Shown here piece by piece: positions 5,503-34,153 of a stretch of 64,000 bases of DNA. Under the pieces are notes generated by a model. The model searched no databases. It saw nothing but the letters and a program-made list of their open reading frames with translations, and was not told where the DNA came from. Source of the stretch: Escherichia coli (GTDB taxonomy: Bacteria; Pseudomonadota; Gammaproteobacteria; Enterobacterales; Enterobacteriaceae); NCBI RefSeq assembly GCF_024502345.1, contig NZ_JALDNN010000001.1, one strand, 5' to 3'. Each line of letters begins with the position of its first letter. The first letter of the stretch is position 1. A program made the translations under genes and the position numbers.

Positions 5503-6353
5503 GGTTTACGTTTTTCCAGCGTACGATGGCGTGACTGGACGTTTTTACCGCGCGAGCGGAAGTAGTCAGCCAGTTGCTCTGCAATATACACCGAACGGTG
5601 CTTCCCGCCGGTACAACCAATGGCGACCGTCAAGTAGCTACGGTTGTTGGTTTCCAGCATAGGTAACCATAGCTCAAGATAGCTTCGCGTCTGGTAGATA
5701 AAATTGTGTACTTCTGTGTGGCGGTCGAGGAACGCGGCGACAGGTTTATCAAGACCCGTCATTGGACGCAGTTTCGGATCCCAGTGCGGGTTCGGCAAGA
5801 AGCGCACGTCAAAGACGTAATCTGCATCGATAGGGATACCGTGTTTGAAGCCGAAAGACTCAAAGACCATGGTCAGTTCGCGTTCACGTTTACCCAGCAG
5901 ACGGGTACGCAGCATTTCAGCCAGCTCGTGAACGGACATTTCTGAGGTATCGACAATCAGATCCGCTCGCGAACGCAGAGGCTCCAGCAAATCGCTTTCT
6001 TTGTCGATAGCACTTTCCAGCGACAGGTTTTTGCTGGAAAGCGGATGCAGTCGGCGCGTGTCACTGTAACGACGAATTAAGGTATTACGGTCGGCATCCA
6101 GGAACAGGAGTTGCGGTGAGAAAGCGTCAGGCAGGTTACTCATCGCCTGTTCGAATATTTCTGGTGACTCCGGCATATTACGAACATCAATGCTGACGGC
6201 GGCAGAAATCTCGCGATCGGCCAGGGTTCGAGCCAGATCGGGTAACAACACTACGGGAAGGTTATCCACGCAGTAAAAACCCATATCTTCCAGCGCACGC
6301 AGGGCGACAGATTTACCTGAACCTGAACGTCCGCTGACGATCATCAGTACCAT
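5499..6353 (-). CDS. rapZ: RNase adapter protein RapZ
   Basis: 284 aa; Walker A GRSGSGKS; 4-nt overlap with npr. Confidence 0.93.
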
Positions 6354-6398
6354 GTACTGTTTCTCCTCACAACGTCTAAAAGAGACATTACCGAATAA

Positions 6399-6890
6399 CT
6401 ACGCTTCATCCGGAGTACCTTCGGTATCCGTAATGATTTGATACAGCTCTTCATCGCTCTGGGCTGCGCGTAAACGGCGGCAGATGGTTTTGTCCGCCAG
6501 ACGTTTCGCCACCAGCGACAGAGTATGCAGGTGCGTTTTAGTTTGGTCTGCCGGCACCAGCAGGGCAAAAAGTAAGTCCACCGGTTGGTTGTCGATGGCA
6601 TCGAAAGCTATAGGCGTTTCGAGCTGAACGAAAACGCCAACGGCGCGCAGAGTATCTTCTTCCAGTTTGCCATGCGGAATGGCAATACCATTGCCGATAC
6701 CGGTACTGCCCATTTTTTCCCGCGTCAGGATAGCTTCAAAAACCACCTGAGGCGGCAGGCTAAGTTGTTTCGCCGCCAGCTCGCTGATGATTTCCAGGGC
6801 GCGTTTTTTGCTCTGACAGTGGACGCGGCTTCGCGTACATTCCCTGTTAAGAACACTGCTAAGCTGTAGAGTTGTATCATTATTTGTCAT
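6399..6890 (-). CDS. ptsN: nitrogen-related PTS EIIA, PtsN
   Basis: 163 aa from ATG at 6890 (MTNNDTTLQL); track ORF is 8 codons longer. Confidence 0.9.
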   Translation of the reverse strand: MTNNDTTLQLSSVLNRECTRSRVHCQSKKRALEIISELAAKQLSLPPQVVFEAILTREKMGSTGIGNGIAIPHGKLEEDTLRAVGVFVQLETPIAFDAIDNQPVDLLFALLVPADQTKTHLHTLSLVAKRLADKTICRRLRAAQSDEELYQIITDTEGTPDEA

Positions 6891-7007
6891 AATTTCACCT
6901 AAGAACCTGCCCACTCAAACAGTGGAACAGGCTCGGAGCATTAACCGTACAAATGGCCCGTTGTGCCGCACAACAGGCCGCCATGCACATGCTAATTGCC
7001 CGGACAA

Positions 7008-22926: not shown

Positions 22927-24360
22927 CTAATTGTTCTGATAAATATCTTTATACAAACGGCTTTCAAAACGCACTAACGGAATACGGCGATTACGCTGAT
23001 CCGCAGGTTCTACTGCATAGCCAGAAAGATATTGTACAAACGCCATTCGTTGCCCGCTCGCTGTGGTAATGAATCCCGCCAGGTTATATACCCCCTGCAA
23101 CGAACCGGTTTTCGCTGAGACTTTTCCATCCACGCCCGCCTGATGCAGACCTGCACGGTACTGCAAAGAGCCGTCATAGCCCGCCAGCGGCAGCATGGAG
23201 ATAAAGTTAAGTTCATTGTCGTGTTGGGCAATGTATTGCAGCACCTGCATCATGGTGGCGGGGGCAATCAGGTTATGCCGCGAAAGCCCTGAACCATCGG
23301 CAATAATGGTGTTTCCAATATCGACACCGGCTTGCTGGCGCAGGATCTGACGCACGGCGTCCGACCCGGCCCGCCATGTTCCAGGCACATTGAAGCGCGC
23401 ATGGCCTATCATGCGGAAAACCGTATCGGCGATCATGTTGTCCGACTTTTTCAGCATAATCTTAAGCAGATCGTGCAACGGGGCCGACTGTTTACTGGCA
23501 ACTACCGTTCCAAGTTCGTTAACCTGAGTCTGGCGCAGCAGTGTTCCGCTCCAGGTGATACCTGCCTGTTTTAACTCATCTTTCAGAATTGCCCCGGCAT
23601 AGCTGGCTCCATCCTGCACGGCAAAAGCCAACGGGAGCGGCTCAGAACGTTGCGGCAGGCATCCCGTTAGCGTAAAGCGGTTCAGGTCGCCTGGTACGAC
23701 ATCCAGTTCGCAGTATTGCGCTTCGGCAGAACCACGGGGGAGTGTGCGTACCTGGCTGAACATCGTAACGGGGTAATAAGATGCCACGCGTATAAAAGCC
23801 ATATCACCAGGTTTTGGGGCACTGTAGAGCGAGACGGAGAAACAGTTGCGGTCAACTATGGCGGCGGCAGGCGGAGCGCTAAAGCATTGTGTCATGTCAT
23901 TCCATGGCCAGCCGGGGGCTTTATCGTGGCTGGCGAAAATGGAGGTATCTATCAACACATTGCCATCGATTTGGTTGACGCCAGATTTTTTCAAAGTCGC
24001 GACCATATTGCGAATATCCTGACGTTTTAACGTCGGATCGGCACCAAATCGCGCCACTAAGTCACCCTTAAGTACGCCGTTTTCCACATTGCCTTTGGTT
24101 TCAAGCGTCGTGGTAAAACGAAAATCGGGGCCGAGTTGAATCAACGCCGCCAGCGCAGTAATCACTTTCTGCGTACTGGCGGGCAGCGCCATCTGCTGAC
24201 TGTGGTAATCAATAGCGGGGGCCGACGCGCCGACTTTTTGCACCATCAGGGCAAGGTTGGCACCAGCGGGGAGTTGAGTAATGTACTCATCAACATTTGC
24301 GGCCTGAACACTAAACGCTATACAGCTGGTCAATCCGATGATAAATCTGGAAAATCGCAT
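22927..24360 (-). CDS. dacB: D-alanyl-D-alanine carboxypeptidase/endopeptidase PBP4
   Basis: 477 aa; signal peptide, STQK active-site motif. Confidence 0.95.
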   Translation of the reverse strand: MRFSRFIIGLTSCIAFSVQAANVDEYITQLPAGANLALMVQKVGASAPAIDYHSQQMALPASTQKVITALAALIQLGPDFRFTTTLETKGNVENGVLKGDLVARFGADPTLKRQDIRNMVATLKKSGVNQIDGNVLIDTSIFASHDKAPGWPWNDMTQCFSAPPAAAIVDRNCFSVSLYSAPKPGDMAFIRVASYYPVTMFSQVRTLPRGSAEAQYCELDVVPGDLNRFTLTGCLPQRSEPLPLAFAVQDGASYAGAILKDELKQAGITWSGTLLRQTQVNELGTVVASKQSAPLHDLLKIMLKKSDNMIADTVFRMIGHARFNVPGTWRAGSDAVRQILRQQAGVDIGNTIIADGSGLSRHNLIAPATMMQVLQYIAQHDNELNFISMLPLAGYDGSLQYRAGLHQAGVDGKVSAKTGSLQGVYNLAGFITTASGQRMAFVQYLSGYAVEPADQRNRRIPLVRFESRLYKDIYQNN

Positions 24361-24607
24361 AATCTCGCGCTAACAACCTGGAATCGAGCCGTCATACTAC
24401 GGCGCAACGCCCTATAAAGTAAACGATGACCCTTCGGGAACTTCAGGGTAAAATGACTATCAAAATGTGAATTGTAGCTGACCTGGGACTTGTACCCGGG
24501 TCGGTATTTTTTTGCTTCTGGTCCCGGTGAGGAGTTATGCCGGGCAGGCCGAACAGCCGGGGTGGGTGAAGACTTGCCCCATCAGGAATATTCAAGAGGT
24601 ATAACAA

Positions 24608-25084
<477 letters not shown>

Positions 25085-31164: not shown

Positions 31165-31251
31165 GCCGAGGTGGTGGAATTGGTAGACACGCTACCTTGA
31201 GGTGGTAGTGCCCAATAGGGCTTACGGGTTCAAGTCCCGTCCTCGGTACCA
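31165..31251 (+). tRNA. leuU: tRNA-Leu (anticodon GAG)
   Basis: 87 nt; acceptor stem GCCGAGG/CCTCGGT, anticodon loop CTTGAGG, long variable arm, 3' CCA encoded. Confidence 0.9.
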
Positions 31252-31262
31252 AATTCCAGAAA

Positions 31263-31288
31263 AGAGACGCTGAAAAGCGTCTTTTTTC
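31263..31288 (+). terminator. intrinsic terminator after secG-leuU
   Basis: Hairpin AGACGCTGAAAAGCGTCT followed by TTTTTT. Confidence 0.75.
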
Positions 31289-31325
31289 GTTTTATAAGCC
31301 AGGTTAAGTATTCTTAATTTGATAA

Positions 31326-32279
31326 CTATTTACCTAGGCATAAATCTGTTTCATCTAGTTTGAAATCTGTAATTTCTAACTTTTGCATTATTACCGGAAG
31401 CACTTGGTGAATTATTCTCATGCCAGTAAGGATCTCGTTCATGTATATATCTGGATGAATGCGAGATTTATTGAAATCGAAACGTTCGGCTTCTGCTGCA
31501 ACGCTAAGTTGGTCAGCGGTGTTATAAACCATTTCCAGAAGTTCGGCTCTTAACGGAATTCCCGCCCTGAATGCCATCATCTTGAGTTGATTCAACCAAT
31601 TTTCGTAGTCTTTTTTAACTCTATAACGAAATTCTTTAAAGTTTGACGCAACAGGAGTATCAATTTCAATTTTGCATGCAGCAAGTGATATCAATGAACT
31701 CTGAATATTGATGGCTTCGCTTGAATAGACATCTAAATCGTCGTCCTGAATCAACTCATCAACATATGCTATGTAGAAACCATAAACATCATTCAGAGCA
31801 TGATAAATATCATTAATTACAGAACAATGAGCATTGCTCTCTAATATCTCCCAAAAAGCCTCTTCTTCATCAGCATTATCGTCGTCAATATTAAGTCCTT
31901 CAGGAAAGGAAAGAGGTGTAGGAAAACCTATTCGCTTTAATACATCAATTGTTTCTTCAACCAAAAAACCATCTTCGTCAGTAAGAAGTTGTGTTATATA
32001 ACCCGTTTCAGCATCGTCCATAGCTCGTCGAGCAAGAAAATGGATAAGTCGATCCCATTTCTCAGCATTCGCGACTGAGCCTGTCCATTCAACTAGTTGA
32101 GGAGAATAATCTCCTATTTGTGTAATATTTCTGAACTTTTTTTCCATATCAGCGGACATGTGTTCCCCTTTTTTCCACTTGCTAATTTGTGTTGAGGAAA
32201 CACCTAAGTGGCTTGCTAAATCTTTTTGAGTGCATTTCAGAGTATGTAATGCGAGGCGTACAAAATATTCACCATTCAT
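31326..32279 (-). CDS. hypothetical protein, N-terminal XRE/Cro-type HTH plus unrecognised acidic C-terminal domain; occupies the slot held by yhbX in K-12
   Basis: 954-nt ORF (317 aa) with AAGGA 7 nt before the ATG; N-terminus TQKDLASHLGVSSTQISKWKKGE fits the Cro/C1 HTH pattern; AT-rich (about 33-36% G+C by hand count); function unknown. Confidence 0.75.
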   Translation of the reverse strand: MNGEYFVRLALHTLKCTQKDLASHLGVSSTQISKWKKGEHMSADMEKKFRNITQIGDYSPQLVEWTGSVANAEKWDRLIHFLARRAMDDAETGYITQLLTDEDGFLVEETIDVLKRIGFPTPLSFPEGLNIDDDNADEEEAFWEILESNAHCSVINDIYHALNDVYGFYIAYVDELIQDDDLDVYSSEAINIQSSLISLAACKIEIDTPVASNFKEFRYRVKKDYENWLNQLKMMAFRAGIPLRAELLEMVYNTADQLSVAAEAERFDFNKSRIHPDIYMNEILTGMRIIHQVLPVIMQKLEITDFKLDETDLCLGK

Positions 32280-32290
32280 CGGTCATTCCT

Positions 32291-32379
32291 TTTACTGAGC
32301 ATAAAAACATAAAGTAAAAATAGAATGCGCTGAAATTTACTTTATTTCATTTAACTTTTACTTTAATTCCGAATTCGGA
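32291..32379. promoter_or_regulatory. repeat-rich putative promoter/operator of the 317-aa HTH gene
   Basis: TTTACT at 32291 with inverted AGTAAA at 32313; direct TTTACTTTA at 32336 and 32357 (21-nt spacing); perfect 12-bp palindrome TCCGAATTCGGA at 32368-32379. Confidence 0.3.
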
Positions 32380-32418
32380 CATGGTGGCCCCTAAACGCAG
32401 TCACATTCTCTTAGCCGT

Positions 32419-32443
32419 AAAAAAAGGCCGCATTTGCGGCCTT
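32419..32443 (-). terminator. intrinsic terminator after argG
   Basis: On the minus strand: GGCCGCAAATGCGGCC followed by TTTTTTT. Confidence 0.75.
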
Positions 32444-32462
32444 TAGCACGAAAGCTATGATA

Positions 32463-33895: not shown

Positions 33896-34153
33896 TCATC
33901 TTTTATCGGAGACAGGAAGAGTTTAGTGTGTTTTTTGTAAAATAATGCGCTTAAGGGAGAGCAGGAGAAGGCAAAAGTATTCAACAAATGAAAGTGAACT
34001 GGATATTCATTCACGTGATTAGCAATAAACGTTGACAAAATGTGGCATGGATCACTATAATGCCTGCAGATTTTACGTCCCGTCTCGGTACACCAAATCC
34101 CAGCAGTATTTGCATCTTTTACCCAAAACGAGTAGAATTTGCCACGTTTCAGG

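Follow-up and report, generated by a model that had tools for sequence, protein, structure and literature searches.

What does a gene do that stands alone, in one genome after another, with no constant partner beside it? The question is raised by positions 31326-32279 of a 64,000-nucleotide stretch of Escherichia coli DNA (contig NZ_JALDNN010000001.1 of RefSeq assembly GCF_024502345.1; the whole stretch is called the window below), an open reading frame (ORF) on the minus strand that runs from an ATG at 32279 down to 31326 and encodes 317 amino acids. A preliminary description, made from the letters alone, had seen in it a helix-turn-helix (HTH) of the XRE type followed by an acidic remainder, and had wavered between an ordinary regulator whose target was lost and a standalone component of a conflict system. 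The comparative analysis reported here leads us to regard the product as probably a sequence-specific DNA binder that would repress its own promoter and move as a self-contained cassette of ~1.1 kb (promoter, operator and gene). The operator of the family is new here, and the protein is an uncharacterised XRE regulator with an orphan domain. Its parts are as follows.

31326..32279, minus strand: the complete ORF, stop codon included; XRE HTH plus orphan acidic helical domain, 317 residues (ORF analysis; RefSeq label in E. coli 'helix-turn-helix domain-containing protein', WP_001012978.1)
32109..32264, minus strand: XRE/Cro-C1 HTH domain, residues ~6-57, with the recognition helix S28-S-T30-Q31-I-S-K34-W35-K36
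31329..32108, minus strand: C-terminal domain, residues 58-317, an acidic all-alpha bundle specific to the family

An AAGGAA Shine-Dalgarno sequence lies 7-12 nucleotides 5' of the ATG.

A repeated operator precedes the family genes

The motif was first spotted by eye in eight distant genomes, each of which has two to four copies of TTTACTAAA/TTTAGTAAA within the 200 nucleotides upstream of the gene, and was tested statistically afterwards. The family consensus, aTTTAGTAAAt (logo a-TTTAGTAAA-t), is an A/T-rich near-palindrome of 9-11 bp. Exact matches to TTTA[CG]TAAA number 82 in the 13,000 nucleotides upstream of 65 loci as against five in the remaining 710,887 nucleotides, an enrichment of ~900-fold, and shuffled upstream regions held 0.58 of them on average and five at most. 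Paired sites are spaced by 20 bp (11 pairs), 21 bp (30) or 22 bp (4), most pairs being inverted so as to form a 30-bp palindrome, TTTAGTAAA-N12-TTTACTAAA; frequent layouts relative to the ATG are -96/-75/-49/-28, -96/-28, -73/-52 and -45/-24. In many loci a TTGACA-like -35 hexamer lies between two sites and the second site falls within the -35/-10 spacer, while in others a TATAAT-like -10 hexamer abuts the first site. Of 41 loci, 29 have their best sigma70-like element overlapping a site, compared with 16.4 expected from random placement. We infer from this layout the classical arrangement of negative autoregulation.

The same counts bear on a different reading, according to which the protein is a domesticated trans-acting transcription factor that also controls unlinked host genes with TTTAGTAAA-type sites, its helical domain binding a small-molecule or protein signal. 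Both the operator and the HTH are well defined, and so A/T-rich a 9-mer arises by chance in many promoters; on the other hand, the five exact sites found in the 711 kb of flanking DNA are all isolated, with no pair among them. We consider such a wider regulatory role somewhat unlikely, and return to it below with the evidence from distribution and composition.

Operator pairs in phage DNA were considered and discounted: at least 120 viral contigs fit the pattern, but family members and related HTHs are missing from all of them, and most of the matches are AT-rich or tandem repeats. In two moderately AT-rich IMG/VR contigs (L145, 4138-4212, and L176, 9009-9083), four TTTACTAAA/TTTAGTAAA sites make up a long inverted repeat, exemplified by AGATTTACTAAAACTCGAAGGAAGATTTACTAAATC…TTTTAGTAAATCTTCCTTCGAGTTTTAGTAAATC, with no family member or related HTH nearby.

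Co-variation of the recognition helix with the site

Residue 30, the first of the recognition helix and the one directly before the invariant Q31, tracks base 3 of the site. In all 43 loci whose protein has T30 (VS[PS]TQISKWK) the main site is TTTAGTAAA, and in nine of the ten with A30 (VSPAQISKWK) it is TTAAGTAAA (Fisher p = 2e-9, uncorrected for phylogeny). On a neighbour-joining tree the A-type proteins occupy at least three separate positions, and sister contrasts are provided by L037 versus L019 and by L051 versus L030. A sister clade fused to a TIR domain (see below) has a diverged helix (…STQQLRKLASLH…) and no operator sites. Because of the co-variation at residue 30, the independent switches and the joint absence of helix sequence and sites from the TIR clade, the family HTH very likely reads the operator directly, with residue 30 as its predicted specificity-determining residue. 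The conserved operator and this co-variation lend comparative support to the DNA-binding role that had been proposed at the outset.

A divergent branch from Polynucleobacter (L072-L075 and L087; 34% identity, helix VSK(V/A)QISKWK) has neither operator variant within 130 nucleotides of the start; one site with a single mismatch lies about 183 nucleotides upstream, and is exact in L073. This branch may use a different operator.

Under the autoregulatory reading, dimerisation of the 260-residue helical domain would hold two HTHs about 21 bp apart, two pairs of sites would permit a higher-order assembly, and occupancy of the sites would block RNA polymerase, which would amount to negative autoregulation. 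The invariant polar stripe H275/D277/Y279/N281/E282/R288/H291 belongs to the helical domain, which would also respond to a signal, be it a ligand or a partner protein, by altering DNA binding; in the sister clade, the same domain would act with a TIR effector in place of an HTH able to read the operator. As there is no linked target, any output would be exerted in trans, on host or incoming DNA with the same sites, or would reside within the helical domain.

The promoter region in E. coli and Salmonella

In E. coli three copies of TAAAGTAAA lie within 56 nucleotides upstream of the gene, and the 64-kb window holds one other copy. The sites are listed below with their distances from the ATG.

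32357..32365, unstranded: operator-like site 1, TTTACTTTA on the plus strand, -86..-78, 21 bp from site 2; aligns with Salmonella TTAAGTAAA
32336..32344, unstranded: operator-like site 2, TTTACTTTA on the plus strand, -65..-57; its Salmonella counterpart in the alignment is the TTTACTAAA occupying the -35/-10 spacer
32310..32318, unstranded: operator-like site 3, TAAAGTAAA on the plus strand and TTTACTTTA on the gene strand, -39..-31
32291..32299, unstranded: perhaps a fourth, degenerate site, reading CTCAGTAAA along the gene strand, -20..-12; suggested by its alignment with the Salmonella TTTACTAAA at -20

The upstream regions of the two species are colinear, running from a site to a -35-like hexamer (ATGAAA versus TTGAAA), a second site and on to the third. 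The remaining copy of TAAAGTAAA in the window, at 24415-24423, is intergenic between the ORFs 22927-24360 (minus strand) and 24608-25084 (plus strand), and is plausibly there by chance.

Several points weigh against the autoregulatory reading, and the first concerns the E. coli copy itself. This copy is atypical, its sites differing from the family consensus at two positions despite a T-type helix, and no sigma70 consensus promoter was found upstream of the gene, so that expression may be weak and regulation weakened or different. A canonical HTH dimer would be expected on a longer site than a 9-bp near-palindrome, which casts doubt on the stoichiometry per site. With its own promoter as the only conserved target and no obvious selectable output, an essential piece would seem to be missing. 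The motif was seen before it was tested, and the co-variation statistic carries no correction for phylogeny. Finally, DNA binding, repression as opposed to activation, and the oligomeric state are all deduced from comparative sequence analysis.

An XRE head on an orphan acidic helical domain

Pfam recognises in the 317-residue protein HTH_19 (E 5.4e-5, residues 6-42) and HTH_3 (E 2.7e-3) and nothing else, and HTH_3 is significant (E<=1e-3) in 68 of 102 family members. The HTH, a five-helix fold that superimposes on solved XRE domains, resembles those of phage repressors and antitoxins. Judged by profile, fold and comparative operator evidence, the protein belongs to the XRE HTH family, in agreement with its first assignment. 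Matches in PADLOC, NCBIfam, PHROGs and PDB sequence searches are confined to the HTH; PADLOC-DB v2 gave no full-length match to a system protein, its best hit being at the HTH level (E 1.8e-4, residues 16-40), and the initial decision to name no defence system was sound.

The protein as a whole contains 17.4% Asp plus Glu (isoelectric point, pI, 4.64; net charge -24). The acidity resides, as had been noticed, in the remainder: residues 58-317 have a net charge of -27 and a pI of 4.34, and the HTH is basic, with a pI of 9.3. Asp and Glu make up 32% of residues 120-150. The motif scan found no Walker A, HExxH, Rx4-6H or GIY motif in the protein, and no membrane segment was detected (maximal Kyte-Doolittle mean over 19 residues, 1.07), so that the corresponding negative statements of the preliminary description hold. 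An identity as a HEPN protein was rejected on the absence of Rx4-6H. A regular-expression match to PD-(D/E)xK at residues 276-307 was likewise set aside, as position 307 varies, a helix is predicted for the segment and no nuclease fold turned up among the matches. The protein and its family members gave no Peptidase_S24 match, and with an all-alpha C-terminal domain it is not of the CI/LexA type.

The suspicion that the remainder is helical was borne out by structure prediction. An AlphaFold2 model of residues 58-317 alone, built on 102 diverse sequences, is all-alpha with several helices of 20-28 residues (mean predicted local distance difference test score, pLDDT, 94; predicted template modelling score 0.87); an earlier model on a 47-sequence alignment had reached pLDDT 81 and was poor at residues 245-282, a defect cured by the larger alignment. 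Two segments of the domain stand out in the family alignment.

31395..31463, minus strand: the best-conserved stretch in the family, R273-I-H275-P-D277-I-Y279-M-N281-E282-(I/L)-L-x-G286-M-R288-x-I-H291-Q-V-L-P295, where the last long helix starts ((near-)invariant alignment columns)
31836..31904, minus strand: Asp/Glu-rich loop of variable length, residues ~126-148, NIDDDNADEEEAFWEILE; gap-rich yet consistently acidic in the family, of lower AlphaFold2 confidence, 32% Asp plus Glu

Also conserved in the domain are E246, E265, K203 and K233. Among members from metagenomes, P0182 carries an acidic-loop insertion resembling, by eye, a ribbon-helix-helix (…RLTANIRRELHTLLKVEAATRRTSIGELLEDLIEKN…); another (P0142) has a C-terminal extension of 180 residues without a Pfam match, and a third (P0183) is extended at both ends.

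The profile, structure-prediction and structural-neighbour searches, which the preliminary description had proposed, matched the domain to its own family only. Foldseek retrieved 28 matches from AFDB50 at E<=0.005, with the next best at about 0.9; 26 of the 28 are labelled only HTH/XRE, transcriptional regulator or 'uncharacterised', the exceptions being a Vibrio entry called 'hemerythrin-like' and the borderline 28th match at E 4.8e-3. Pfam has no match in the C-terminal domain of any of the 102 members, and neither there nor in PDB or AlphaFold-DB did we find a relative outside the family. No RRNPP, TPR or recombinase fold is among the structure matches of the C-terminal-only model. A hemerythrin identity, suggested by the label of the distant Vibrio match, was rejected, as the family has only two conserved histidines and none of the 102 members matches a hemerythrin Pfam model. 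The best reading of the domain is that of an oligomerisation or sensor module.

The same domain in other architectures

The 484-residue protein P0133 ends in a TIR domain (Pfam TIR_2, E 3e-22; PADLOC PDC-S66, E 1e-64; ThsB TIR-like, E 7e-37). Together with P0271-P0275 it makes up the TIR sister clade, six clusters with mutual identities of 54-100% that include Stenotrophomonas sp. 2619. This clade has lost the recognition-helix sequence of the family along with the operator, and has acquired the TIR domain at its C-terminus. The genes of this clade are also singletons and also GC-poor relative to their flanks, and their products keep the conserved motif of the helical domain. PADLOC and Pfam find no TIR domain in the E. 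coli 317-residue protein. In a single metagenomic cluster, on a contig of 1.4 kb, the HTH is replaced by a weak GIY-YIG match (E 4.6e-5) beside the helical domain; with one cluster only, we discounted it as an established fusion.

The TIR fusion implies that the helical domain can work without an operator-reading head, alongside a typical effector of conflict systems, and suggests that the domain may be a transferable sensor or assembly module. It is chiefly because of this fusion that we entertain a sensor or assembly role and a possible connection with defence. The most direct form of such a connection would be a single-gene module against phages or plasmids, in which the helical domain senses the invader, the output is binding of A/T-rich sites on the invader DNA or a toxic action of the acidic domain, and autorepression limits the dose. 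The TIR clade, with its PDC-S66, ThsB and TIR_2 matches, and the protein pairing the domain with a GIY-YIG motif speak for it. However, the former amounts to six of >1,000 clusters and the latter to one short contig, the E. coli protein has neither an effector domain nor a PADLOC match outside its HTH, and the paired sites in viral contigs look like chance occurrences or tandem repeats unlinked to family members. The link through TIR to conflict systems is suggestive but thin, and we judge a defence module of this kind unlikely, also in view of the gene neighbourhoods considered below.

Family distribution, selection and composition

The ORF is more than a chance reading frame, since its 745 homologues are nearly all full length and their non-synonymous divergence stays well below the synonymous one. 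These homologues (E<=1e-3, counted as clusters at 90% identity) are mostly 312-325 residues long, align end to end at 52-57% identity and span Gamma- and Betaproteobacteria and Geobacterales. When 1.84 billion representatives were searched with a profile, 472 matches were obtained, 301 of them below 1e-10, almost all of identical architecture, and the full-length homologues fall into about 300 clusters at 50% identity with a patchy distribution. Scanning one genome per species yielded 75 loci in Alpha-, Beta- and Gammaproteobacteria, Desulfuromonadota, Desulfovibrionaceae, Deferribacteraceae and Acidobacteriota. Because synonymous divergence is saturated (pS 0.76-0.87) while the non-synonymous one stays at pN 0.17-0.28, the gene is under purifying selection. 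Its GC content is below that of the flanks in eight of eight hosts, by 8-20 points in seven of them (for example 0.40 versus 0.60 in Serratia, 0.47 versus 0.64 in Massilia and 0.45 versus 0.61 in Oryzomonas) and by 2 points in Photorhabdus.

Phages essentially lack the family, and plasmids rarely carry it. A tblastn search of 50,697 phage genomes gave no match, the 2.9 million viral contigs of IMG/VR gave one distant full-length match and three fragments, and five plasmid records match. The homologue on viral contig L093 was rejected as a phage gene, its neighbours lacking phage hallmarks. Two other copies call for comment. That of L018 (JAIJJM010000762.1, a 1,485-bp contig of a metagenome-assembled genome named 'Collinsella' sp.) encodes a protein 100% identical to the E. 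coli one; E. coli DNA has almost certainly contaminated the bin. The copy on the Zophobihabitans entericus chromosome (L043, about 6001-6939) has an in-frame stop within the HTH (…SCSQK*LAAK…) and is probably a pseudogene.

A gene without constant neighbours

The analysis of homologue neighbourhoods, also proposed initially, found the gene to be a singleton, lacking any conserved neighbour, in about 80 loci that come from several phyla. Eight neighbourhoods annotated with Pfam have no neighbour in common, and all-against-all clustering of the ORFs of 80 loci placed even the top neighbour families in five loci or fewer, mostly from close relatives (e.g. five Polynucleobacter loci). Adjoining core genes differ by locus (secG/argG, pflA, V-ATPase, rpoD, cysT, iolG); some loci adjoin accessory modules (Fic, VapC, ParE-antitoxin, HipA-like, IS3, AAA_14), and many neighbours are of unknown function. 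In Serratia marcescens the gene occupies one fixed core position, between an MFS gene and pflA (111 data blocks). No integrase and no toxin recurs beside it in the ~80 loci; the protein lacks the conserved adjacent toxin gene of type II antitoxins (HigA, MqsA, HipB), no neighbour family recurring in more than five of the 80 loci, and NCBIfam antitoxin models match the HTH only, far under their cut-offs. Nor is a defence-island context consistent across the loci examined.

In Acinetobacter (L011, 8982-9794) a gene for 270 amino acids without a Pfam or NCBIfam match begins 19 nucleotides after the stop of the family gene, and in Zophobihabitans a gene of unknown function also lies downstream (listed loci L043, 7261-7827, and L052, 6910-7296). 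These downstream genes may be lineage-specific partners.

Because the gene is a singleton across ~80 loci and yet is kept under purifying selection together with its own operator, being alone is the normal state of the family and not a product of decay. For the same reasons the suggestion of an ordinary regulator whose target was lost now appears unlikely.

The accessory genes that adjoin some copies (Fic, VapC, ParE-antitoxin, HipA-like, IS3 or AAA_14) would suit a module directed against phages or plasmids, as would the strong conservation of the family despite its horizontal spread and a gene that is patchy, GC-poor relative to every host examined, found in only 4% of E. coli and there an alternative 'allele' to yhbX (see below). 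They are offset by the lack of a recurring neighbour or a consistent defence-island context, many copies lying between core genes (secG/argG, pflA, V-ATPase, rpoD).

The leuU-argG islet

The window carries the gene in an enterobacterial chromosomal order, ftsH-folP-glmM-secG-tRNA-Leu(GAG)-[ORF]-argG-tRNA-Met-rimP-nusA-infB, where the ORF region has a GC content of 0.34-0.41 compared with ~0.53 in the flanks. Comparison with K-12 delimits the segment.

31165..31251, plus strand: tRNA-Leu(GAG) gene leuU, the left border; terminator hairpin at 31259-31288
31294..32461, unstranded: low-GC islet of 1,168 bp (promoter-operator-gene plus argG terminator), in place of the 2,048-bp yhbX segment of K-12; K-12 homology ends at 31293, just past the leuU terminator, and starts again with the argG stop at 32462
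32423..32444, minus strand: intrinsic terminator hairpin of argG, inside the islet, conserved in Salmonella

The islet is present in 236 of 5,426 complete E. coli genomes (~4%), strain 2013C-4974 being one natural carrier, and yhbX in 5,167 of them, and the leuU-argG site is essentially dimorphic in E. coli, holding either the 317-residue gene or yhbX. Salmonella has an ortholog at the same site (71% protein identity), the whole region being colinear at 80.7% DNA identity.

Inspection of the sequence and comparison with K-12 revealed no repeats at the islet borders. A self-mobilising or tyrosine-recombinase cassette was rejected, as there are no terminal repeats and no match to a recombinase fold. 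Further along, a degenerate copy of the leuU 3' end and the bases that follow it lies at 34072-34102, upstream of metY (GTCCCGTCTCGGTACACCAAATCCCAG versus GTCCCGTCCTCGGTACCAAATTCCAG at 31236-31261), and Salmonella has a 26-nucleotide, 96% copy of the leuU 3' end at the equivalent place. The two copies flank argG together with the 317-residue gene or yhbX, and resemble an old attachment-site duplication.

A low-GC islet adjoining a tRNA gene, with an HTH like those of phage repressors and antitoxins, might be taken for the relic immunity repressor of a decayed prophage, integrative element or toxin-antitoxin pair. We hold this to be highly improbable: the same lone arrangement recurs in ~80 loci of several phyla with no integrase, toxin or conserved neighbour, purifying selection is strong, no repeats flank the islet, and phages and plasmids scarcely carry the family, by the phage, viral-contig and plasmid counts given above (0 in 50,697, one distant full-length match plus three fragments in 2.9 million, and five records).

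The locus also bears on the control of unlinked host genes. The colinearity of E. coli and Salmonella at the same site suggests long residence in some lineages, and the fixed core position in Serratia marcescens agrees with such a role. Against it, the gene is foreign in GC content in every host examined (marginally in Photorhabdus) and present in 4% of E. coli, a conserved cross-phylum regulon is hard to see, and the family has no characterised homologue. The two Serratia regulators considered, PigP and ProR, are different proteins: PigP comes from a 615-bp ORF within an operon (PMC3585978), ProR is followed by a RelE/ParE toxin and has a GC-rich palindrome as its binding site (PMC12996984), and identity was rejected on size, operon context and binding site, all of which differ from those of the Serratia family member. 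A literature search found no paper on the 317-residue protein, its operator or the gene at the leuU-argG locus.

Taken to its furthest consequence, the evidence of the fusions would make the acidic helical domain a new sensor or assembly module of one-protein immune or conflict devices, gating a DNA-binding head that reads a 9-bp word or, in the sister clade, a TIR NADase; the E. coli cassette would then be an undescribed single-gene system against phages or other mobile DNA, with autorepression limiting its dose, and would alternate with yhbX at leuU-argG. We regard this proposal as quite improbable. If it is true that a helical sensor drives a DNA-binding head or a TIR effector, it would be a new module in the repertoire of bacterial conflict and signalling. 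Should the protein prove to be no more than a self-limiting regulator that acts on a few host targets, it is an ordinary, uncharacterised transcription factor that belongs to the XRE family. Either way, a conserved and widely transferred family with a confidently modelled orphan domain, now with an exactly predicted DNA target and a predicted specificity residue, is unusually ready for experiment, and the leuU-argG site, as a clean natural either/or polymorphism (yhbX or the 317-residue gene) in E. coli and Salmonella, lends itself to population genetics.

Comparison with known systems

The likeness to Thoeris ThsB and to PDC-S66, itself a computational candidate only, concerns the TIR domain of the sister clade; the E. 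coli protein has no TIR domain and no ThsA-like partner nearby. Peptide-sensing regulators of the RRNPP/Rgg group (PlcR, PrgX, ComR, Rgg) differ in that the C-terminal domain of our family is not TPR-like (no member has a TPR match in Pfam), no adjacent peptide gene was seen beside the family gene, and the family is Gram-negative.

Closer in logic are Stl of SaPI, ImmR of ICEBs1 and CI of TP901-1, which likewise join an N-terminal XRE HTH to a larger helical, dimerising part, that of Stl sensing phage proteins. Their similarity to the family is nevertheless confined to the HTH, the C-terminal-only model retrieving none of them, and they sit within the mobile element that they control, whereas the family gene is alone.

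The closest parallel in promoter architecture is with the Aca proteins (Aca7), the C-proteins of restriction-modification systems (C.AhdI) and the P22 C2 and 434 repressors, where, as in this family, repeated operators overlap the regulator's own promoter, implying autoregulation. Beyond the HTH the family has nothing in common with these proteins either. They have 60-100 residues or known C-terminal domains, in contrast to the 260-residue orphan acidic helical domain described here, and they regulate adjacent genes (acr, restriction-modification or phage lytic genes), while the family gene has no linked target. The half-sites, finally, are spaced by about 10 bp in that group and by about 21 bp in the present family.

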